DNA of 64,000 bases from Escherichia coli 042 (GCF_000027125.1 NC_017626.1); one strand, 5' to 3'. Numbered from the stretch's first letter, positions 5,674-30,343 are shown. Numbers and translations are program-made. Notes: a model not told the origin generated them from the sequence alone.

Positions 5674-6333
5674 GTGAAAGAGATTATTGATGGATTCCTT
5701 AAATTCCAGCGCGAGGCATTTCCGAAGCGGGAAGCCTTGTTTAAACAGCTGGCGACACAGCAAAGCCCGCGCACCCTTTTTATCTCCTGCTCCGACAGCC
5801 GTCTGGTCCCTGAGCTGGTGACGCAACGTGAACCTGGCGATCTGTTCGTTATTCGCAACGCGGGCAATATCGTCCCTTCCTACGGGCCAGAACCCGGTGG
5901 CGTTTCTGCTTCGGTGGAGTACGCCGTCGCTGCGCTTCGGGTATCTGACATTGTGATTTGCGGTCATTCCAACTGTGGCGCAATGACCGCTATTGCCAGC
6001 TGCCAGTGCATGGACCATATGCCTGCCGTCTCTCACTGGCTGCGTTATGCCGATTCTGCCCGCGTCGTTAATGAGGCGCGCCCGCATCGTGATTTACCGT
6101 CAAAAGCTGCGGCGATGGTGCGTGAAAACGTGATTGCTCAGTTGGCTAATCTGCAAACGCATCCATCGGTGCGCCTGGCGCTCGAAGAGGGGCGGATCGC
6201 CCTGCACGGCTGGGTCTACGACATTGAAAGCGGCAGCATCGCAGCTTTTGACGGCGCAACCCGCCAGTTTGTGCCACTGGCCGCTAATCCTCGCGTTTGT
6301 GCCATACCGCTACGCCAACCGACCGCAGCGTAA
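5674..6333 (+). CDS. cynT: Carbonic anhydrase
   Basis: 219-aa beta-class carbonic anhydrase (CSDSR, HSNCG motifs). Confidence 0.92.
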
Positions 6334-6345
6334 CCTTATTTTTAA

Positions 6346-6834
<489 letters not shown>

Positions 6835-6866
6835 CAACCATGCGCGACCATCAAAAGACGTTCACG

Positions 6867-8021
6867 ATGCTGCTGGTTCTGGTGCTGATTGGTCTTAATA
6901 TGCGACCACTGCTCACCTCCGTCGGACCACTGCTACCGCAATTGCGTCAGGCGAGTGGAATGAGCTTTAGCGTGGCAGCCCTGTTGACCGCTCTGCCGGT
7001 GGTTACCATGGGCGGGCTGGCGCTGGCCGGAAGCTGGCTTCATCAGCATGTCAGCGAACGTCGCAGCGTCGCCATCAGTTTGTTACTGATTGCCGTCGGT
7101 GCATTGATGCGTGAGCTTTACCCCCAAAGTGCGCTGCTGCTTAGCAGCGCACTGCTTGGTGGAGTGGGGATCGGCATCATTCAGGCAGTGATGCCTTCGG
7201 TAATTAAGCGGCGGTTTCAGCACCGTACGCCACTGGTGATGGGGCTGTGGTCCGCGGCTCTGATGGGCGGCGGTGGACTTGGTGCCGCCATTACGCCCTG
7301 GTTAGTTCAACATAGCGAAACCTGGTATCAAACACTCGCCTGGTGGGCGCTGCCTGCCGTTGTTGCGCTCTTTGCCTGGTGGTGGCAAAGCGCCCGCGAG
7401 GTCGCCTCTTCTCACAAGACAACAACCACTCCGGTTCGCGTGGTATTTACTCCCCGCGCCTGGACGCTGGGTGTTTACTTCGGTCTGATTAACGGCGGTT
7501 ACGCCAGCCTGATTGCCTGGTTACCCGCTTTCTATATTGAGATTGGTGCCAGCGCGCAGTACAGCGGTTCCTTGCTGGCATTGATGACGCTTGGGCAAGC
7601 AGCAGGGGCATTGCTGATGCCTGCTATGGCTCGCCATCAGGATCGGCGCAAACTTTTGATGCTGGCGCTGGCGTTACAACTGGTGGGGTTCTGCGGCTTT
7701 ATCTGGCTGCCGCTGCAATTGCCGGTATTGTGGGCAATGGTGTGCGGATTAGGTCTGGGCGGCGCATTTCCGCTCTGTTTGCTGCTGGCGCTCGATCACT
7801 CTGCGCAACCGGCTATTGCTGGCAAACTGGTGGCGTTTATGCAGGGGATCGGTTTTATCATCGCCGGGCTTGCTCCCTGGTTTTCTGGCGTGCTGCGTAG
7901 TATCAGTGGCAATTACTTGATGGACTGGGCGTTTCATGCGCTGTGCGTCGTTGGGCTGATGATCATAACCCTGCGTTTTGCACCAGCACGTTTTCCGCAG
8001 CTGTGGGTCAAAGAGGCATGA
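6867..8021 (+). CDS. cynX: Cyanate MFS transporter
   Basis: 384-aa multi-pass membrane protein from the internal ATG at 6867 of ORF 6840..8021. Confidence 0.9.
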   Translation: MLLVLVLIGLNMRPLLTSVGPLLPQLRQASGMSFSVAALLTALPVVTMGGLALAGSWLHQHVSERRSVAISLLLIAVGALMRELYPQSALLLSSALLGGVGIGIIQAVMPSVIKRRFQHRTPLVMGLWSAALMGGGGLGAAITPWLVQHSETWYQTLAWWALPAVVALFAWWWQSAREVASSHKTTTTPVRVVFTPRAWTLGVYFGLINGGYASLIAWLPAFYIEIGASAQYSGSLLALMTLGQAAGALLMPAMARHQDRRKLLMLALALQLVGFCGFIWLPLQLPVLWAMVCGLGLGGAFPLCLLLALDHSAQPAIAGKLVAFMQGIGFIIAGLAPWFSGVLRSISGNYLMDWAFHALCVVGLMIITLRFAPARFPQLWVKEA

Positions 8022-8059
8022 TGCGACGCTTGTTTCGCCAGATAATGGAAGAGTGAATT

Positions 8060-8092
8060 ATTGTCGGATGTGCCCAATGGCGCATCCGACAT
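8060..8092. repeat. REP-like hairpin downstream of cynX
   Basis: gtcggatg ... catccgac inverted repeat; sequence closely resembles the first unit after prpE. Confidence 0.7.
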
Positions 8093-8108
8093 TTATTTCA
8101 GTGCTTAT

Positions 8109-8720
8109 TTAAACTGAAGGCTCAACTTTATAATCTTTGTAATAATAGTGCTTATCCCGGTCGTTTATTTCGCGAATAACCCGACAAGGAACGCCAGCAG
8201 CCACGACGTTTGGTGGAATGTCTTTTATGACGACACTACCCGCGCCAATAACAGAATTATCCCCGATGGTGACGCCTGGATTAATGACCACATGACTTCC
8301 GATCCAGACGTTATTGCCAATCGTTATCGGAAAAGAGTACATCTCACCGTTTTTTCTTAATTCATGGTGTACCGGGTGTCCCGTAACGGAAAGAGTAACG
8401 TTGGGTGCAATCAGTACGTTATCACCGATTGTTACCGTGTAGTCATCGACAATGGTTAAATTAAAATTTGCATAAAAATTGCGGCCTATATGGATGTTGG
8501 AACCGTAAGAGAAATAGACGGGAGGTTCTACCCAGGCGTTTTCCCCTACCGTGGCAAACATTTCTTTAATCAGGCTTTCTCTTTTTTCAACTTCTGATGG
8601 ATGCGAGTGATTAAACTCATACATTAACGTTTTCCCACGAAGTCTTTTTTCCGGTAAGCCTTCGCACATATCGGTAAATAGCTTGCCTGCTTTTATTCTT
8701 TCGGTCATTGGCATGTTCAT
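8109..8720 (-). CDS. lacA: Galactoside O-acetyltransferase
   Basis: Translation MNMPMTERIKAGKLFTDMCEGLPEKRLRGK, hexapeptide-repeat fold; the longer ORF to 8771 is an artefact of reading through a REP element. Confidence 0.93.
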   Translation of the reverse strand: MNMPMTERIKAGKLFTDMCEGLPEKRLRGKTLMYEFNHSHPSEVEKRESLIKEMFATVGENAWVEPPVYFSYGSNIHIGRNFYANFNLTIVDDYTVTIGDNVLIAPNVTLSVTGHPVHHELRKNGEMYSFPITIGNNVWIGSHVVINPGVTIGDNSVIGAGSVVIKDIPPNVVAAGVPCRVIREINDRDKHYYYKDYKVEPSV

Positions 8721-8745
8721 TGCGATCATTCCGTTATGATATGTT

Positions 8746-8777
8746 GGTCGGATAAGGCGCTCGCGCCGCATCCGACA
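8746..8777. repeat. REP element between lacY and lacA
   Basis: ggtcggataaggcgctcgcgccgcatccgaca. Confidence 0.85.
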
Positions 8778-8785
8778 TTGATTGC

Positions 8786-10084
<1,299 letters not shown>

Positions 10085-23994: not shown

Positions 23995-24828
23995 TTAACG
24001 CATATTCAGTTTATTGGCGTGGTAGGCAATATGCTCGCCAATAAAACTGGAGACAAAATAATAGCTGTGATCATAACCCTCGTGATAACGGATTAACGTC
24101 TTGATATTCATCTCCTGGCAGATCTTTTCAAGATTTGGAGTCCGCAGCTGTTCTGCGTAAAAATCATCACTCAACCCCTGATCAACCATTATTTCCGCAA
24201 CGCGTTGACCTTGTGAAATAAGGCTCACCGGATCGTAATCCAAGCACGCCTCTTTATTTTCACCAAGATATGCGGTAAAGGCTTGCTGTCCCCACGGTAC
24301 TTGCGATGGGGAGACAATGGGCGAAAACGCCGAGACGCTGACATATTCATCTGGGTTACGTAACGCCAGCACCAGTGCGCCCAGCCCGCCCATAGAATGA
24401 CCTGAGATAGACTTTCTGGCCGTTGCCGGAAAATGTTGCATCACTAAATCCGGCAGCTCGTTGTGGATATAATCATACATTTTGTAATGTTCATTCCACG
24501 GCGCTTGCGTTGCGTTCAGGTAAAACCCGGCACCTTGCCCGAGATCGTAACGGTCGGCATCTGCGACATGACTGCCTCGCGGACTGGTGTCTGGCGCAAC
24601 AACAATAATGTTGTGCTCAGCCGCGTAACGTTGCATCCCCGATTTAGTAATGAAATTCTGCTCGTTGCAAGTCAGCCCTGAAAGCCAGTACAACACCGGC
24701 AATTTTTCACTTGCGGCTTTTGGTGGGAGATAGACGCCGACATTCATTTCACATTTCAGTGATGGGGAATAATGCCGATACACATTTTGCCAGCCGCCAA
24801 AGCTGGCATGTTTTTCAATGAGTTCCAT
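23995..24828 (-). CDS. frmB: S-formylglutathione hydrolase
   Basis: 277-aa esterase with GHSMGG motif, downstream of frmA. Confidence 0.92.
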   Translation of the reverse strand: MELIEKHASFGGWQNVYRHYSPSLKCEMNVGVYLPPKAASEKLPVLYWLSGLTCNEQNFITKSGMQRYAAEHNIIVVAPDTSPRGSHVADADRYDLGQGAGFYLNATQAPWNEHYKMYDYIHNELPDLVMQHFPATARKSISGHSMGGLGALVLALRNPDEYVSVSAFSPIVSPSQVPWGQQAFTAYLGENKEACLDYDPVSLISQGQRVAEIMVDQGLSDDFYAEQLRTPNLEKICQEMNIKTLIRYHEGYDHSYYFVSSFIGEHIAYHANKLNMR

Positions 24829-24919
24829 CAGTCATTATCTCACGGTTAATCCCCCGGACGGCTGCCCGGGGAGAGTATTAAGAACCCCGTCTGAACTGGA
24901 CGGGTAAACCTGCGGGAAA

Positions 24920-26059
<1,140 letters not shown>

Positions 26060-26063
26060 TCAG

Positions 26064-26339
26064 CTATTTAAGATAGGCACGAACCAGTTCAATAGTGTCG
26101 TCAACGGATTGGCTGACTTCGCGGCTGTAGCAGTCATTTCGGTCAAACGTTTCCCGGATATGGCTTTCAAGCACTTCTGCCATCAGCCCGTTAGCCGCGC
26201 CCCGAACGGCAGCGATCTGTTGGAGTATGGCACGGCATTCGGCATCACCCTCCAGCGACCGTTCCAGAGCATCAATCTGCCCCCGAATACGACGAACTCG
26301 AGTAAGGACCTTTTTCTTCTCTTCCGGAGTACTGGGCAT
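26064..26339 (-). CDS. frmR: Formaldehyde-responsive repressor FrmR
   Basis: 91-aa protein [27 protein letters not shown] (CsoR/RcnR family). Confidence 0.92.
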
Positions 26340-26365
26340 TTCGCACCTCATCATCTGCACGCAAT

Positions 26366-26413
26366 ATACTATAGGGGGGTATGCTATATGTCAATGCATA
26401 CCCCCCTATAGTA
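26366..26413. promoter_or_regulatory. frmRAB promoter operator: perfect 19-bp inverted repeat
   Basis: atactataggggggtatgc - 10 nt spacer - gcatacccccctatagtat immediately upstream of frmR. Confidence 0.8.
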
Positions 26414-26455
26414 TATAACACTGGAGAATAAAATTTATCCGGTGAATGTGGTCGG

Positions 26456-26502
26456 AAAACAAAGAGGAAAGGGGGGGGCTAATCGGCAGGGAAGGCCCCC
26501 CC
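26456..26502 (-). terminator. Candidate rho-independent terminator of yaiO
   Basis: On the minus strand a G7/C7 stem (26471-26478 with 26496-26502) is followed by tttcctctttgtttt. Confidence 0.6.
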
Positions 26503-26524: not shown

Positions 26525-27298
26525 TCAGAATTTCCAGGTCAGATGGGCTGCAAGTTGCAGACCGTTATAATCATCGGTTGGGGTGTCGTACCACACTTTA
26601 CCTGCCGTCAGCCCGAGATTAAGTTGCTCAGTCAGCGGTTGAATACGTTGCAGACTGACGCTCTTCATGCTGCCGTAGCGTGTTTCTGGCGTCCAGTCAT
26701 AGGTGTAAGCACCTGTTCCGCGGCTTAGCCATAGTTGCGTATAACCAGTGCCGCGCGGGTCATTCAGACGCACGGAAATCATATTGCTGTAACTACCACC
26801 TGCATCGCTGGAGTCATAATGGGTATAGCGATAGCTGGTGATCACCGGGCCAGTATAGAGGGATACGCCGCCTTGCCAGGCATCGACTTCGACATCATCG
26901 TAATATTTAGTGTAGCGATAACCGGTCGTGAAAAGCGTTTTTGGCAACAGTGCCAGGTTAATATCCTGACGAAAATCCTGGCGGGCAAAGACCGGCGTAT
27001 TATCCGCAAAGGCAATACCCGTTCGGGTTGTCAGCCAGTTATTCCATTTATACCAGACCGCACCCTGACCGCGAGTGGCATTGAAATGTTCAGTTTCATA
27101 ATCACGACGCCCCTGGGAAAGATTAAAAAGCAGCGTTGCGTTTTCAACTTTCGCCACCAGTTCAGCATACGCTAAATTACGGTTGCCATGATCGCCAGAA
27201 TAATCGGTAAAATCGTAGCCCGCGGTAATGGAAGTTAACCCGGCATAAGCGGGCAATGTGCTAAAAATTGCTGCCGCTAATAACGTCCGTTTTATCAT
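26525..27298 (-). CDS. yaiO: Outer membrane beta-barrel protein YaiO
   Basis: 257-aa ORF with signal peptide MIKRTLLAAAIFSTLPAYA, alternating aromatic/hydrophobic strands, C-terminal aromatic ...HLTWKF. Confidence 0.88.
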   Translation of the reverse strand: MIKRTLLAAAIFSTLPAYAGLTSITAGYDFTDYSGDHGNRNLAYAELVAKVENATLLFNLSQGRRDYETEHFNATRGQGAVWYKWNNWLTTRTGIAFADNTPVFARQDFRQDINLALLPKTLFTTGYRYTKYYDDVEVDAWQGGVSLYTGPVITSYRYTHYDSSDAGGSYSNMISVRLNDPRGTGYTQLWLSRGTGAYTYDWTPETRYGSMKSVSLQRIQPLTEQLNLGLTAGKVWYDTPTDDYNGLQLAAHLTWKF

Positions 27299-27299
27299 T

Positions 27300-28010
27300 T
27301 TAATCTCCTGTACGGATAAGTTCTTGTCGGAGTGAATAAGTTCCGGTAGGTAAATTACGTTCTACAATCACGCGCGGGCCAAGTTGCGTGTTCGGGGAAA
27401 TAATTCGCCCAGGCAAAATAATAACTTGTACACCAAGGCGTGAACGCTGCCCGATATAACAACCTAATTTATCGCATTCGGTAGCGATAATTCCCTCTGG
27501 AGTTCGAACAGATACGGGCTGTTGATCCAGACGATGATTACTGGTACGTACTTGTGCGCCCAAATATGTCTGGTTTGCAACTACCGAGTCGGCGATAAAG
27601 CATTGCGGACCAATCGTTGCTTCCGCTTCAATAACCGCATTTTTAATTTCGGTGGCAAAACCAATTTTTACGCCATTGCTGATTATTGTGCCAGGACGAA
27701 TAAACGCATAATTACCTATCAGGCAGTTTGCGCCAATCACTACCGGACCCTGAATAACGGCACCGTGACAAATACGGGTATTCGCGCCGATAACAACTTC
27801 ACCTGCAGTTTCATCAATAATTACCTGGTCTGCAATCTGAATATTTTTCTCTTTAACATTAAGCTTCAGAAAGTTTTTCAGTTCCTGTGACAGAAGGTTG
27901 GGAATAAGCGGTTGACGCTTCCACCAGTGCGGAATAGCGGGTGGGTTTGTCGCGCTGAGGTTCGCGTCCAGTAAAAAAGGCAATAAGTCCATAAATAATC
28001 CAGATGGCAT
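27300..28010 (-). CDS. yaiX: Hexapeptide-repeat (left-handed beta-helix) acyltransferase; start uncertain
   Basis: Repeated [LIV]-G-x-x-x-x hexads (VIGANTRI, VIGANCLIGN, IGPQCFIA); the ORF overlaps the yaiP 3' end by about 150 bp. Confidence 0.75.
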   Translation of the reverse strand: MPSGLFMDLLPFLLDANLSATNPPAIPHWWKRQPLIPNLLSQELKNFLKLNVKEKNIQIADQVIIDETAGEVVIGANTRICHGAVIQGPVVIGANCLIGNYAFIRPGTIISNGVKIGFATEIKNAVIEAEATIGPQCFIADSVVANQTYLGAQVRTSNHRLDQQPVSVRTPEGIIATECDKLGCYIGQRSRLGVQVIILPGRIISPNTQLGPRVIVERNLPTGTYSLRQELIRTGD

Positions 28011-29055
28011 AAGCTAATAATACATACACAACGGAAAGCGGTGCTAAAGGCACCAACAACCAGCAACGATGAAACCAGGCGCTAAAAGCACCAATAACAC
28101 AAACTACGCCGACCCAGATAAGCGGAAACATTGCCAACACCACACCATGCGGCCCGGTGGTAATGAATTCATTAAACCAGGTAGTGAGATAAATCCCAAC
28201 GCCATAAAGCACAACCAACAGCATAGGAAATATACTGAAGATACCGAAGCGGCTAAATAAAAGTCTTTTATGCAGGCGCATACAGACCGCGTAGCCCACA
28301 ATCCAACGCCGCCAGCGACGCCACTCCTCACGCGGGCTGTTGCATTCCTGTGGGTATACGATGCAGCGATTCGCCTGCCGAATACGGTAGCCGTTTGCCA
28401 CCAATGTCCAGGTGAGATCAAGGTCTTCGACTTTAGTACGATCCGAGAAACCGAACTTACGCAATACATCAGTACGGAACATCCCGCAGGCACCGCTGAT
28501 AATAAACGGTGCGCCGCCCACGAGCTGCTGTAGCGTGCGCTTCATAACAATCATCGGCAACTTTACGGTCGCGCGGATGTGTGGTAACAGACCCGCGCCT
28601 TTCAACGCAGTAGAGGGAATGCCGCCTACGGCATCGGCACCGCGCTCAATTTCTGCCAGCATATAGCCCATTCCGTCTTGATCGGGCGGAACATAGGTGT
28701 CGGCATCACTTAAAAAAACCTGGTCGCAGGTGGCGTAATTGAGGCCATTCATCAGCGCACCACCTTTACCGGTATTTTTTTGCGTGACGGCAACAAAGCG
28801 GTCGCCCCATTTGCGTTTGACTTCCTCCATGACCGATTCGGTATTGTCCGTGGAGCCGTCGTTTACGCAAATTACCCGGCAAAAATAAGGGTTACGCAGC
28901 AGATTATCCAGTGACTGTGCCAGACACGGGCCTTCGTTATAAGCAGGTATAATGGCGTCAATACAGCCTTTCTTTTGACTGGGTTTACGTTTTAGCGTAC
29001 TTAAAAACCATAGCAACATTGCTATGGACATACAGATAAATATCCAGGTTTTCAT
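27859..29055 (-). CDS. yaiP: Family-2 glycosyltransferase with integral membrane domain
   Basis: 398 aa; N-terminal TM helix, GT-A core (CVNDGSTD, SDAD, RWRRW), then several C-terminal TM helices. Confidence 0.85.
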   Translation of the reverse strand: MKTWIFICMSIAMLLWFLSTLKRKPSQKKGCIDAIIPAYNEGPCLAQSLDNLLRNPYFCRVICVNDGSTDNTESVMEEVKRKWGDRFVAVTQKNTGKGGALMNGLNYATCDQVFLSDADTYVPPDQDGMGYMLAEIERGADAVGGIPSTALKGAGLLPHIRATVKLPMIVMKRTLQQLVGGAPFIISGACGMFRTDVLRKFGFSDRTKVEDLDLTWTLVANGYRIRQANRCIVYPQECNSPREEWRRWRRWIVGYAVCMRLHKRLLFSRFGIFSIFPMLLVVLYGVGIYLTTWFNEFITTGPHGVVLAMFPLIWVGVVCVIGAFSAWFHRCWLLVPLAPLSVVYVLLAYAIWIIYGLIAFFTGREPQRDKPTRYSALVEASTAYSQPSVTGTEKLSEA

Positions 29056-29064
29056 GCAATTTGC

Positions 29065-29736
29065 TCAAAGAATCATTTTATGAATTACAAAGCCTTCACC
29101 CAGATCGCTATTGACCTGTTGCCCGCGAAATTGTGCAACTGCACGCAGGCGATCCGGGCGCATATAATCACGATGGCCCTGGCTCTTATGCTGTTTTAAT
29201 GCAGCCAGTTTAATGGTGAAATATTCTTCTTCCACGGATTCAAAAACCTGTGGCATAAATGAAAGCCAGGTACTTGGCGTTTCATAGCCGAGAATTTGCG
29301 GAATAGCGCGACAGGCAACCATTGAGGCTTGATAGACTGCAAGATGATCCTGATGGCGGTCAGCATCATGCATGGTGTATACACGAATGATTTCTACATC
29401 AGACGGAATTTGTTTTTTAAGGACATCTTCCAGAGCGGAAATCATATCATTAAGTTGTAAATGAGTACGGGTGTCAGCAAAATTAAAATGAATAGTTTGT
29501 TGACACCCCAAAATGTTTAATGCTTCGAGTGATTCTTGATGTCGATTAATTATTTCACTCACGCCGGAATTACCCGATGTCATCACTACCGCTGCAATAT
29601 AGAACCCTTTTTTTGCAAGACGAGCGAGCGACGCGCCACAGCCCAATTCTATATCGTCAGGATGTGCGCCAATAGCAAGGATACCCTTTCTTTTATTTGC
29701 CGAAGAAAGGATGGCTGAATCTAAAACCTTATCCAC
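29065..29736 (-). CDS. yaiS: LmbE/PIG-L-like N-acetylglucosaminyl deacetylase
   Basis: ORF with AHPDDIELGCG motif near the N-terminus and a later HxDH motif; AT-rich coding sequence. Confidence 0.8.
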   Translation of the reverse strand: MDKVLDSAILSSANKRKGILAIGAHPDDIELGCGASLARLAKKGFYIAAVVMTSGNSGVSEIINRHQESLEALNILGCQQTIHFNFADTRTHLQLNDMISALEDVLKKQIPSDVEIIRVYTMHDADRHQDHLAVYQASMVACRAIPQILGYETPSTWLSFMPQVFESVEEEYFTIKLAALKQHKSQGHRDYMRPDRLRAVAQFRGQQVNSDLGEGFVIHKMIL

Positions 29737-30343
29737 TTAATGACACTCCATTTTATTTATTATACTACAAGCACAACGATGCCCACAGAGACGTAATCTC
29801 TGGCGCAGACAGATGCTAATATTTAAGTGTTAAAAATTGCTGATAGCTGAAAAATAAGGGGCTTTCAGGTACGTGGATACGACTGCGTAATCTTTTATGT
29901 AGTTCATATGTTAAGTGTTTGTGTGTTTGGTTTGTATAGTTATTTTGTTTTATATATTGTATTTAGATGTGATTTAGTTTGTCAATTAATTACATATTAA
30001 AAATATGTTCTATGCACGAATATGGATTATATACATTATGTGAATATATTATGTGGTTGATTGAGAATGATACAGTTATATATGCAATGTGAATATAATG
30101 GTTTCATTATATGTATTGCTGTTAATAAAATAAAAGACATTATAATCTGCTTGTTTATGCATTAATAAAATGAAGTGCAGTAACTTACTGAATTGTCAGA
30201 GTGGGTGTAATTGCATATTTAATCTTTCCTTTGCCGCTTTTTTGCTAAGAATAAAATCATCTGTGCGATAACGACTAATTCTTTTAATGAATGTTTTTAT
30301 TCCTGAATACTGCTCCTATAACAAGACAGGGGAGCAGACAATC

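Follow-up and report, generated by a model that had tools for sequence, protein, structure and literature searches.

The yaiSPXO cassette of Escherichia coli 042, a candidate minimal synthase-type module for export of a surface glycan

Introduction

Several described glycan pathways resemble the yaiS-yaiP-yaiX-yaiO locus of Escherichia coli. PgaABCD and IcaADBC share with it a four-gene operon comprising an inner-membrane GT2 synthase, a deacetylase and an outer-membrane barrel, as well as an aggregation phenotype, and a bona fide pgaABCD operon is found elsewhere in E. coli. The class I hyaluronan synthases (HAS; CvHAS, XlHAS1), in which polymerase and translocase are one protein, and BcsA have in common with YaiP a GT-A domain, an interface helix carrying an xRW motif and a transmembrane (TM) bundle. 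The NodC-NodB-NodA(/NodL) pathway likewise combines a GT2 with 1+3 TM helices, a cytoplasmic de-N-acetylase and then an acyltransferase, of which NodL is a left-handed beta-helix (LbH) protein. Finally, the PIG-A/PIG-L, MshA/MshB, BshA/BshB, HpnI/HpnK and BtrM/BtrD pairs also set a deacetylase gene beside the gene for a GlcNAc-type glycosyltransferase. In these pairs GlcNAc is attached from abundant UDP-GlcNAc and then deacetylated, a logic that would apply to the yai genes as well.

The yai pathway has barely been studied because the laboratory strain K-12 carries a broken copy. This copy has two lesions: an IS2 insertion (yaiX::IS2), correctly named in an earlier sequence-only reading of the locus in E. 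coli 042, and a nonsense codon in yaiS (Q186*). IS elements and nonsense mutations are frequent at this locus in E. coli. According to a passage in EcoGene 3.0 (PMC3531124), repair of yaiX' in K-12 leads to vegetative clumping that requires YaiP, which agrees with the surface phenotype expected in the sequence-only reading. The clumping described there was obtained in K-12, which carries a truncated YaiS, and removing IS2 also relieves polarity on yaiO, so the result as given in that passage does not isolate the role of YaiX. Here we report the gene anatomy of the locus, the family and fold assignments of its four proteins, their cytoplasmic or envelope location, and the co-inheritance of the genes.

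Results

Layout and flanking signals of the locus

Within the 64,000-nucleotide stretch of E. coli 042 DNA that was analysed (the window), yaiS, yaiP, yaiX and yaiO lie on the minus strand at 26525-29736, all between frmRAB and tauABCD. All four ORFs were found where the sequence-only reading had placed them, and each has a strong family match in profile searches. yaiS (29065-29736, 223 aa), which has a GTG start preceded by GGAG, encodes a predicted cytoplasmic PIG-L/LmbE (CE14) protein; yaiP (27859-29055, 398 aa) a predicted inner-membrane GT2; yaiX (27300-28010, 236 aa in the longest ORF) a predicted cytoplasmic LbH (hexapeptide) protein; and yaiO (26525-27298, 257 aa) a 14-stranded outer-membrane beta-barrel with a signal peptide. 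Junctions of 1 to 9 bp had been proposed, which holds for yaiS/yaiP (9 nt) and yaiX/yaiO (1 nt) but not for yaiP and yaiX, which overlap by 23 to 152 nt depending on the yaiX start. The overlap is 23 nt with the CTG at 27881 chosen by PGAP, and 134-152 nt with an ATG at 27992 or 28010. One of these ATG codons is probably the true start, since the WW motif of the predicted protein is common to orthologues that start 'MWW'.

All four ORFs are open and keep all of their family-invariant residues, so the cluster had rightly been called intact. In the identical RefSeq record yaiS is labelled a pseudogene, a label that we reject as an annotation artefact. The AT-richness noted by eye proved real once windowed GC was computed, but it is modest and uneven among the genes. 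The cluster has 47.4% GC versus 51.9% for the window, with 11% of 3.2-kb windows lower still, and values for single genes are 43.2% (yaiS), 45.0% (yaiX) and about 49.5% (yaiP and yaiO).

The divergent yaiS/tauA spacer (29737..30343) is a composition trough with 30% GC. It contains a candidate operon promoter on the minus strand at 29956..29985 (TTGACA-18-TACAAT). This promoter lies some 220 nt ahead of the GTG of yaiS, scored 11/12 in a consensus scan and was also read directly from the sequence. In K-12, the same hexamers of this spacer are listed as an RpoD-holoenzyme 'constitutive' yaiS promoter, and genomic SELEX flagged the spacer for H-NS (PMC3946193). The spacer is probably a site of H-NS silencing. 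The yaiS leader matched no Rfam family. At the other end of the locus, a G/C hairpin resembling a terminator, with a U-rich tract after it, lies 23 nt past the yaiO stop (26456..26502, minus strand). This hairpin, inverted repeat I2/I3, contains 8 G-C pairs, after which comes UUUCCUCUUUGUUUU. As RNA it folds at -19.4 kcal/mol, but the z-score is only -1.2, and it is suggestive, no more, of an operon terminator.

Co-inheritance of the four genes

In species-representative genomes of Gamma- and Alphaproteobacteria, all 18 orthologous loci keep the order yaiS-yaiP-yaiX-yaiO, together with the common strand and the tight packing. The same arrangement occurs amid unrelated flanks in Salmonella, Citrobacter, Acinetobacter, Stenotrophomonas and metagenomic contigs, and persists even where YaiO identity drops to 21%. 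It is also carried by an IncF conjugative cnf2 plasmid and by genomic islands. No fifth conserved gene recurs around the orthologous loci. Because the order is identical in 18/18 loci and in the metagenomic, island and plasmid copies, with unrelated flanks and no constant fifth partner, these comparisons support the proposal, already made in the sequence-only reading, that the four genes form one functional module.

Among individual neighbours, a PilZ gene directly follows yaiO in one metagenomic lineage only, LuxR/GerE response regulators adjoin 7 of 27 loci, and the Salmonella copy adjoins a PapB regulator and a YadA-type adhesin. Neighbours of these kinds are of biofilm type, and we counted them in favour of a surface glycan.

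The membrane glycosyltransferase YaiP

In its AF2 model (pLDDT 81), YaiP is predicted to be an inner-membrane GT2 of the PgaC/HAS/cellulose-synthase fold class. In the model a single hydrophobic helix lies at the N-terminus and three more lie at the C-terminus, as had been read from the sequence: TM1 spans residues 2-21 and the GT-A domain residues 32-234, and an interface helix (241-261) precedes the three C-terminal TM helices. The RWRRW motif reported near the catalytic core occupies residues 247-251 of this interface helix. A helix count of 1+3 is the NodC or minimal layout, and in itself counts against reading the model as a polymer channel.

The nearest curated family is NCBIfam PgaC_IcaA (TIGR03937), at 101.9 bits against a cut-off of 422.3. 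Compared with E. coli PgaC by BLASTP, YaiP shows 29% identity over 241 aa (E 5e-20), and its NDGSTD, DxD, (T/V)ED and xRW motifs align with those of PgaC. These synthase motifs are invariant among 37 orthologues, as are several aromatic and polar residues in the TM helices, and with 62-69% identity across bacterial orders YaiP is the most conserved component of the cassette. It thus combines D,D,D,Q(R)xxRW-type motifs with a TM bundle, the last motif being an R-for-Q variant of QxxRW (R247). Foldseek searches of solved structures matched hyaluronan synthases at TMq 0.62-0.63, BcsA at 0.57 and GtrB/ArnC/DPMS at 0.33-0.38. The nearest curated family and the nearest solved folds therefore support a synthase-type membrane enzyme. 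We rejected a polyprenyl-phosphate sugar synthase of the GtrB/ArnC/DPMS kind on its TMq of 0.33-0.38 versus 0.62 for HAS and on its ArnC score (34 bits versus a cut-off of 529).

Other matches are more mixed. YaiP scores 29 bits with NodC (cut-off 550) and has weak NCBIfam matches to ArnC, PpgS and GtrB-like families, and its orthologues have weak Glyco_transf_21 Pfam matches. Its AFDB neighbours include IcaA and GT2-deacetylase fusions, and those labelled monoglucosyl-diacylglycerol synthase score equal to PNAG synthases. Human glucosylceramide synthase, a non-processive lipid glycosyltransferase, has the RxxRW variant too, so RWRRW is no proof of a polymer synthase. YaiP further differs from HAS and BcsA in its low identity to them (14-18%), in the R that replaces the motif Q and in a conserved C-terminal tail of its own, TGREPxRDKPTRY, whereas a larger number of TM helices and a defined gating loop (WGTR / FxVTxK) mark HAS and BcsA.

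The outer-membrane barrel YaiO

YaiO carries a signal peptide (MIKRTLLAAAIFSTLPAYA, followed by G) and matches its family model (TIGR04390/PF19413) at 184.3 bits against a cut-off of 32, across model positions 1-230 of 230. Its predicted structure is a confident 14-strand barrel of the CymA/OmpG sugar-channel class, and an outer-membrane location has been found experimentally in the literature. The claim of an operon-encoded outer-membrane beta-barrel with a signal peptide is therefore well founded. Neither a TPR nor any other extra domain is present in its 257 aa; nearly all full-length family members have 255-270 aa, many truncated YaiO clusters exist, and no TPR fusions were found in the family. 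The best fold matches are sugar-uptake channels. CymA and OmpG, however, are uptake channels in catabolic operons and share only 7-11% identity with YaiO, a barrel whose loops are very short, which lacks an N-terminal plug and which belongs to a biosynthetic cassette. We propose that YaiO serves as the outer-membrane exit for the product.

Two cytoplasmic modifying enzymes

Its sequence marks YaiS as a complete, cytoplasmic PIG-L/LmbE (CE14) zinc N-deacetylase, with a full-length PIG-L domain containing AHPDD and HxxH motifs and neither a signal peptide nor a TM segment. The AHPDDIELGCG motif noted earlier was located at residues 24-34. YaiS matches NCBIfam BshB1 over residues 19-221 (E 1.7e-20) and falls below every curated equivalog cut-off (e.g. 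BshB1, 74 bits versus 182). Its best PDB match is the archaeal diacetylchitobiose deacetylase 8bgn, which aligns over the full length (residues 4-218, E 1e-10). GAHPDDxELGCG, DxHQDH and HxSQ are invariant among 25 cassette orthologues, in which the zinc and catalytic residues H25, D27, D28, H128 and H131 are unchanged; the allele in this strain shares only ~88% identity with the one common in E. coli. To our knowledge, all characterised PIG-L/LmbE enzymes (MshB, BshB, PIG-L, HpnK, BtrD, Dac) act on small or lipid-linked GlcNAc glycosides and never on polymers or UDP-sugars. Taken separately, this preference for small or lipid-linked substrates counts against a polymer.

YaiX is a cytoplasmic LbH protein and, judging from its homologues, probably an amino-sugar N-acyltransferase. 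It matches the NCBIfam Arch_glmU C-terminal domain (E 5.6e-37) and aligns ungapped over 158 residues with residues 241-398 of ST0452 (2ggo/5z09; E 2e-21). Its closest relative is thus the GlcN-1-P N-acetyltransferase domain found in archaeal GlmU-like enzymes. The homology to the GlmU/ST0452 C-terminal domain includes the acceptor loop, and YaiX N158 aligns with ST0452 N331. Among orthologues the WW N-terminus is conserved and the RTSNHRLD loop invariant. YaiX has no signal peptide or TM segment, and its orthologues begin directly at 'MWW'. The canonical GlmU-type catalytic His is absent: ST0452 His308, which we take to be the equivalent of the catalytic His363 of E. coli GlmU, aligns with Gln136, which is invariant across the YaiX family, as is His159 within the adjacent RTSNHRLD loop. 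This substitution counts against the acyltransferase role in our best explanation. Some LbH N-acetyltransferases (QdtC, WlbB) are active without a catalytic base, so YaiX could still be active despite Gln136. Both YaiS and YaiX come from GlcNAc/GlcN-specific enzyme families, which we counted in favour of an amino-sugar glycan.

Comparison with described systems

The parallel with PgaABCD that had been drawn holds for the synthase, whose nearest family is PgaC/IcaA, but fails for the fold and location of the deacetylase, for the barrel, and for PgaD and PilZ. Even YaiP scores 102 bits against the PgaC cut-off of 422 and has 1+3 TM helices, compared with 2+3 in PgaC. PgaB is a CE4 periplasmic lipoprotein acting on exported polymer, whereas YaiS is a cytoplasmic PIG-L/CE14 protein; YaiO is a stand-alone 14-strand barrel without a TPR domain or any similarity to PgaA; and the yai cassette has an additional LbH acyltransferase. 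No PgaD-like gene and no PgaA or PgaB homologue is present in the yai cluster. The earlier statement that none of these proteins is an obvious Pga orthologue is thus borne out by the sub-cut-off PgaC score and by YaiO. We rejected yaiSPXO as a Pga orthologue for the same score, for the cytoplasmic location of its modifying enzymes and for the lack of a TPR scaffold, PgaD or PilZ.

More generally, the TPR scaffold of synthase-dependent exopolysaccharide systems (PgaA N-terminus, BcsC, AlgK, PelB) is absent from the cassette, no c-di-GMP receptor or co-polymerase domain (PilZ, PgaD, Alg44, PelD) was found in the four proteins, and neither modifying enzyme has a signal peptide or TM segment that would make it a periplasmic polymer-modifying enzyme. 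As a sign of a secreted polysaccharide, the clumping described in EcoGene 3.0 is indirect. The Nod pathway differs in that NodB is a CE4 enzyme and the NodC family scores only 29 bits with YaiP (cut-off 550); yai has no NodA fold or NodIJ exporter, and has an outer-membrane barrel. In the pairs with PIG-L-type deacetylases, the glycosyltransferases are GT4 enzymes without a synthase-type TM bundle, except for HpnI (GT2), and, unlike yai, none is linked to an outer-membrane barrel.

Discussion

We lean towards the view that yaiSPXO is one operon and a mobile, self-contained cassette making an amino-sugar surface glycan, most likely GlcNAc-derived, that causes aggregation. A minimal synthase-type glycan export module is the best reading of the locus, with a glycolipid or oligosaccharide product as a serious rival. 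Transcription would start from the sigma-70 promoter at 29985-29956, within a 30%-GC spacer kept largely silent by H-NS, and the transcript would span four translationally coupled ORFs up to the hairpin past yaiO. YaiP, an inner-membrane protein with a cytoplasmic GT-A domain, would build a beta-linked chain from a UDP-HexNAc donor and thread it through its own helix bundle, like PgaC, hyaluronan synthase and BcsA. The zinc deacetylase YaiS and the LbH acyltransferase YaiX would edit the sugar N-acyl group in the cytoplasm while the product still awaits export, either on the donor, on the primer or on the nascent end, leaving a free amine or a non-acetyl acyl group and avoiding a futile cycle. 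The product would then cross the outer membrane through the open 14-strand barrel of YaiO. In this scheme we infer the donor sugar, that YaiP is processive, what YaiS and YaiX act on, and that YaiO serves as a channel. Because the E. coli cassette has no TPR scaffold, periplasmic modifier or c-di-GMP receptor, a polymer would have to find YaiO unaided.

The serious rival, which we consider unlikely, is that the pathway is non-processive and yields a glycolipid or a short oligosaccharide, on the pattern of the GPI, mycothiol, hopanoid, Nod-factor or Arn pathways. YaiP would add one or a few GlcNAc, at the cytoplasmic face, to a primer or a lipid of the membrane, YaiS would deacetylate the product, YaiX would re-acylate the amine or a neighbouring position, and YaiO would be a FadL-like insertion or exit device. 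The cytoplasmic location of both YaiS and YaiX suits such a pathway, as does the general rule that in characterised family members a PIG-L deacetylase follows a glycosyltransferase; deacetylation followed by an LbH N-acyltransferase also mirrors LpxC/LpxD and NodB/NodA. YaiP contributes its NodC-like 1+3 layout, the RxxRW shared with glucosylceramide synthase, the Glyco_transf_21 matches of its orthologues and the monoglucosyl-diacylglycerol synthase neighbours that score as high as PNAG synthases. However, the cassette lacks a flippase, an ABC exporter and a periplasmic carrier, yet is self-contained in many genera; YaiO (257 aa) has no FadL hatch domain; and YaiP favours PgaC/IcaA (102 bits) over NodC (29) and ArnC (34), with a much poorer fold match to GtrB, ArnC and DPMS than to HAS or BcsA.

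Improbable in our view is a Gtr/Arn-like module that decorates an existing envelope glycan (LPS core/O-antigen, ECA or peptidoglycan). A GT2 with a deacylase and an acyltransferase does recall ArnA(FT)/ArnC/ArnD, and the weak ArnC, PpgS and GtrB-like matches fit, but such systems have no role for an outer-membrane barrel, the cassette has neither a GT-C periplasmic transferase (an ArnT/GtrC analogue) nor a small flippase, it is a unit in genera with very different LPS, and YaiP carries TED and xRW synthase motifs and a synthase fold. The resemblance of YaiO to sugar-uptake channels and of YaiS to diacetylchitobiose deacetylase would suit uptake and catabolism of chito-oligosaccharides, with YaiO as a CymA/chitoporin-like importer and YaiS as a chitobiose deacetylase. 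This is very improbable: the best-conserved protein of the set is a membrane GT2 with a role in biosynthesis, the cassette lacks an inner-membrane sugar transporter, a kinase, a hydrolase and a deaminase, an acyltransferase would be senseless in catabolism, and the phenotype given in the EcoGene passage is clumping. Least credible is that the four genes are functionally unrelated neighbours or in decay. The frequent IS and nonsense hits in E. coli, the many truncated YaiO clusters and H-NS silencing might suggest as much, but co-inheritance effectively refutes it, with the order kept in 18/18 loci across classes, catalytic residues invariant in four families, and the cassette carried as a unit on plasmids and islands.

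A further and rather doubtful possibility is that yaiSPXO represents a minimal class of envelope glycan system that has so far gone unrecognised. This class would consist of a PgaC/HAS-like synthase, a cytoplasmic N-deacetylase and N-acyltransferase, and a dedicated 14-strand barrel, and might need no TPR scaffold or c-di-GMP co-polymerase. If true, the product on the cell surface would be a poly-glucosamine with a non-acetyl N-acyl group or a Nod/GPI-like lipo-glycan, and the cassette would be a mobile aggregation factor that most E. coli carry and that is scattered across Proteobacteria and virulence plasmids.

The yai genes form a conserved and mobile four-gene cassette

The yaiS, yaiP, yaiX and yaiO genes lie on the minus strand, flanked on one side by frmRAB (23995-26339, minus strand) and on the other by tauABCD (from 30344, plus strand). 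They are a conserved, mobile and self-contained cassette of about 3.2 kb, and this is the strongest new evidence that they constitute a module. A pattern scan with the YaiP alignment as query, covering 100,044 species at one genome each, returned 18 orthologous loci. These are found in Escherichia whittamii, four Citrobacter (two in one C. braakii genome), Superficieibacter, Ignatzschineria, four Stenotrophomonas, Lysobacter, Acinetobacter, Pseudomonas viridiflava, and alphaproteobacterial and Sphingomonas metagenome-assembled genomes. HMM searches of the locus ORFs recovered all four genes, in unchanged order, at 18 of the 18 loci. Among relatives of YaiO and YaiP, the order PIG-L deacetylase, GT2 glycosyltransferase, left-handed beta-helix (LbH) protein and YaiO barrel is found on one strand and between unrelated flanks in Citrobacter, Salmonella, Acinetobacter, Stenotrophomonas and metagenomic Proteobacteria, and it is kept even at 21% YaiO identity. 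Clustering of the flanking ORFs of 27 loci yielded no fifth conserved structural gene, the sole recurrent neighbor being a LuxR/GerE-type response regulator (7 loci). Across bacterial orders YaiP retains 62–69% identity whereas YaiO falls to about 33–35%, a contrast that fits a constrained enzyme and a fast-evolving surface protein.

The genomic context of the cassette is variable. Of 5426 complete E. coli genomes, 4970 contain a match, and in 4250 a single location holds at least 80% of the stretch; some of them show insertions of IS1, IS2 or IS3. A complete copy resides on an IncF conjugative plasmid of a bovine E. coli (NZ_AP024124.1, positions 6333-9531 of the locus record), and a YaiP relative is encoded in 50 PLSDB plasmid records, with only 60–80% identity in 17. 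Upstream of the Salmonella copy (locus record L009, 48-8777) is a PapB-family regulator, and the surrounding island also holds an integrase, CcdAB, a YadA-anchor adhesin and ibrAB-like genes.

Several further neighbors were observed. On the IncF plasmid, the cassette is a few kilobases from cnf2, encoding cytotoxic necrotizing factor 2, and a gene for a large DUF3491 protein. The island context also differs in some E. coli, such as strain EC03 (L004, 2499-5705), and in Salmonella, with ibrA/ibrB-like genes (PAPS-reductase/DUF3440 and IbrB) and an IS66 remnant. In one metagenomic lineage a gene for a stand-alone PilZ protein lies directly 3' of yaiO (L022, 2163-2786; L023, 1562-2185), and elsewhere LuxR/GerE response regulators, one accompanied by a MASE1 histidine kinase, adjoin the cassette (L011, 9013-11183; L019, 1112-1711). 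These neighbors hint at control by c-di-GMP or a two-component system outside E. coli.

Gene borders and transcription signals

In the window, yaiS (29065-29736, 223 aa) begins with a GTG codon after GGAG and is followed after 9 nt by yaiP (27859-29055, 398 aa), while yaiX (27300-28010 as the longest ORF, 236 aa) is separated by 1 nt from yaiO (26525-27298, 257 aa). The sequence-only reading, which described four genes joined by junctions of 1–9 bp, was borne out at these two borders and failed at the single remaining one, where yaiP and yaiX share a larger overlap. The PGAP start of yaiX, a CTG at 27881, gives an overlap of 23 nt. Upstream of this codon, however, the frame encodes a 'WW' motif that aligns with the 'MWW' N-termini of orthologues on Pseudomonas-like, Stenotrophomonas and Acinetobacter contigs, and the upstream residues also align with longer N-termini in two further lineages. 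Because of this match, an ATG at 27992 or 28010 is the more likely start, which would extend the overlap to 134–152 nt.

A promoter-like element, TTGACA-18-TACAAT (29985-29956, minus strand), sits in a spacer of 30% GC. Identical hexamers were assigned by genomic SELEX in K-12 as the yaiS promoter of RpoD holoenzyme, with an H-NS site flagged (PMC3946193), and an antisense RNA within yaiP is on record (PMC4666370). At the other end, a G/C hairpin and, behind it, a U-rich tract (26502-26456, minus strand) lie 23 nt past the yaiO stop codon. The hairpin was found by repeat search and folding, its loop being too long for a standard terminator scan, and it is terminator-like, with a weak z-score. 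An Rfam scan of the operon and its leader for riboswitches, such as those for c-di-GMP, returned no relevant family.

The frmR promoter comes next after this hairpin. Its TTGACA is bracketed by a perfect 21-nt inverted repeat at 26364-26416 (ATATACTATAGGGGGGTATGC / GCATACCCCCCTATAGTATAT), presumably the FrmR operator, and this palindrome gave rise to spurious sub-threshold Rfam miRNA hits.

The AT-richness noted by eye was confirmed by computation: the cluster has 47.4% GC compared to 51.9% for the window. The shift is moderate and concentrated in yaiS (43%, GC3 35%) and yaiX (45%, GC3 38%).

The cassette is intact in the window and carries a divergent yaiS allele

Neither of the two lesions of K-12 is present in the window, in agreement with the earlier description of an intact cluster, and the IS2 element that it placed in K-12 yaiX does exist. 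The second lesion is in yaiS, which in an MG1655 derivative (L002, 5504-6175) has a nonsense codon at position 186 (KHKS*) that removes 38 residues, family-invariant positions among them. Owing to this premature stop, the annotated 185-aa K-12 YaiS is a C-terminally truncated protein without invariant residues.

RefSeq labels yaiS a 'pseudogene, missing C-terminus' both in the record identical to the window and in strain N61. We reject this PGAP label since translation shows the 223-codon frame to be open in both, and an ORF of the same length is annotated as a normal protein in another strain. The label appears to stem from the model for the small protein YkiC: a ykiC-like ORF of 39 aa runs antisense to the 3' end of yaiS (29080-29199, plus strand; also L001, 5681-5800, and L003, 2984-3103), and the PGAP records that call it also label the intact 223-aa yaiS a pseudogene. 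It is probable that this is an annotation artefact spreading through RefSeq E. coli records.

Over 3.9 kb, the window is 100% identical to strain BEC1-S17-ESBL-09, and only 55 complete genomes match the whole stretch at 99% identity or more. Its yaiS is a rare, divergent allele, with roughly 88% nucleotide and amino acid identity to the common K-12/N61 allele and 61–75% to the EC03 copy, in contrast to yaiP, yaiX and yaiO, which are 98–99% identical to K-12/N61. The breakpoints fall at the yaiP/yaiS junction (29000-29100) and near the yaiS start (~29730), so that, judged from these alignments, the 5' end of the operon looks like a localized recombination mosaic. The divergent allele retains every family-invariant residue.

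YaiP is related to PNAG and hyaluronan synthases

YaiP has only one strong curated match, to the PNAG synthase family; its score of 101.9 bits (runner-up, 43 bits) falls short of the family cut-off of 422. YaiP is 29% identical to E. coli PgaC over 241 residues (E 5e-20), with alignment of the motifs NDGSTD, DAD/DGD, VEDLDLTW/TEDIDISW and WRRWRRW/WKQRLRW; at the Q of QxxRW, YaiP has R247. Its AlphaFold model (pLDDT 81) consists of one N-terminal TM helix, a GT-A domain, an interface helix with RWRRW and three C-terminal TM helices. Among solved structures, Foldseek matched it to hyaluronan synthases (TMq 0.62–0.63), the minimal cellulose-synthase-like PcManGT, and BcsA (0.57), in contrast to only 0.33–0.38 for GtrB, ArnC and DPMS; on fold and score, we reject a GtrB/ArnC-type enzyme. 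Its AlphaFold database neighbors include IcaA, GT2-deacetylase fusions and proteins labeled monoglucosyl-diacylglycerol synthase.

The C-terminal tail TGREPxRDKPTRY (residues 362–374) is conserved at the level of the catalytic core (0.89), compared to 0.58–0.67 for the TM helices and 0.32 for the 294–303 loop. Simple helix counting on the model would place this tail in the periplasm. A role on the cytoplasmic side, as a gating loop or in ligand binding, would likewise be compatible with its basic nature and the RxxxR spacing. A gating loop, a ligand site and a contact with YaiO are candidate roles.

YaiS and YaiX belong to families acting on amino sugars

YaiS is a full-length member of the PIG-L/LmbE deacetylases, matching the BshB1 profile over residues 19–221 (E 1.7e-20) and the diacetylchitobiose deacetylase 8bgn over residues 4–218 (E 1e-10). 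Its motifs GAHPDDxELGCG, DxHQDH and HxSQ do not vary among 25 cassette orthologues, and it is devoid of a signal peptide. YaiX is a left-handed beta-helix nearest to the C-terminal amino-sugar-1-phosphate N-acetyltransferase domain of archaeal GlmU-like enzymes (Arch_glmU, E 5.6e-37; ST0452, 2ggo/5z09, E 2e-21 over 158 gap-free residues), with far lower similarity to LpxD and O-acetyltransferases. Gln136, invariant in the family, is at the position of ST0452 His308, which we take to be the catalytic base, and an invariant loop, RTSNHRLD, places His159 beside a conserved Asn.

Deacetylases are paired with N-acyltransferases in several pathways, including LpxC/LpxD, NodB/NodA, MshB/MshD and ArnA-formyltransferase/ArnC/ArnD. 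By analogy, YaiS next to YaiX need not be a futile cycle.

YaiO is a stand-alone outer-membrane barrel

YaiO has a classical signal peptide and scores 184 bits against TIGR04390 (cut-off 32). Its model is a 14-stranded barrel with short loops (pLDDT 92.5), whose lumen, by strand alternation, would be slightly basic and aromatic-rich, the inside/outside phase being ambiguous in several strands. No sequence similarity to PgaA was detected. The TIGR04390 domain may also be found fused to TPR repeats; phmmer against 1.84 billion representative proteins and a profile search recovered no TPR-fused or extended relative of YaiO. The phmmer family is small, at 118 representative clusters, and fragments aside nearly all its members are stand-alone proteins of ~260 aa. 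The outer-membrane location was established by experiment (Marani 2006, as cited in PMC4453288), and a 2020 review was unable to model the protein.

Six E. coli clusters of truncated YaiO (147–210 aa; P0011, P0026, P0027, P0029, P0036 and P0043) hold hundreds of member sequences each. This pattern suggests that yaiO often decays in populations of E. coli; the fragments could alternatively be contig-end artefacts.

Discussion

Taken together, the YaiP fold and motifs, the specificity of the YaiS and YaiX families for GlcNAc/GlcN and the dedicated outer-membrane barrel indicate a pathway by which an amino-sugar glycan would be assembled at the inner membrane and delivered to the surface. The glycan synthesis, modification and export module previously proposed is well supported as to the module and as to the synthase. 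Its likening to PgaABCD holds for YaiP and does not extend to the rest. The cassette departs from all canonical synthase-dependent systems in that it lacks both a TPR scaffold and a c-di-GMP co-polymerase and has its two modifying enzymes in the cytoplasm.

We slightly favor a polymer that would be threaded through the membrane by YaiP and released through YaiO. As they are cytoplasmic, YaiS and YaiX must do their work ahead of export, their target being the donor, a primer or the nascent end. To our knowledge, all characterized PIG-L/LmbE enzymes use GlcNAc glycosides that are small or lipid-linked, at the step that follows a glycosyltransferase, and this favors the main rival, in which YaiP is non-processive and makes a glycolipid or short lipo-oligosaccharide. 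The helix layout of YaiP, only 1+3 and NodC-like, and the FadL-type barrels among YaiO matches point the same way, and RxxRW is common to the non-processive human glucosylceramide synthase (PMC6219604, PMC6536669). We nevertheless regard such a product as the less likely, though serious, alternative: the cassette is portable as a unit yet encodes no flippase or exporter, and YaiP is clearly nearer PgaC, HAS and BcsA than lipid-phosphate transferases. Catabolic or uptake functions, and a grouping of unrelated neighbors, are rejected on the conservation and content of the cassette.

According to EcoGene 3.0, which cites a 2011 meeting abstract, repair of yaiX' in K-12 leads to clumping in vegetative growth, for which YaiP is required (PMC3531124). 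As summarized there, this phenotype, the sole one in the searchable literature, fits a surface-glycan pathway; the repair also lifts IS2 polarity on yaiO, in a background of truncated YaiS.

The yai genes and a clumping phenotype are already known. In the searchable literature, functional work on the four genes or the YaiO family comprises only the EcoGene note, localization and PCR-marker papers and incidental mentions. The cassette has stayed at abstract level since 2011 because it is doubly broken in K-12 and probably silenced by H-NS. Relative to this literature, what appears to be new is the conserved mobile cassette, the folds assigned to its products and the location of the editing enzymes in the cytoplasm. 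One practical consequence is that the PCR target yaiO, treated as an 'E. coli-specific orphan' (PMC4453288), belongs to a cassette common to other genera.

Biofilm formation and aggregation in E. coli are usually ascribed to curli, cellulose, PNAG, colanic acid, Ag43 and fimbriae. If the yai product is indeed a new surface glycan, it would be an extra matrix and adhesion component and a possible antigen, encoded by a mobile cassette that occurs beside adhesin genes in islands and with cnf2 on a virulence plasmid. The role of a cytoplasmic deacetylase and acyltransferase pair serving a synthase would then be an enzymological puzzle, and the cassette would offer a four-protein model of glycan passage across both membranes in the absence of a periplasmic scaffold.
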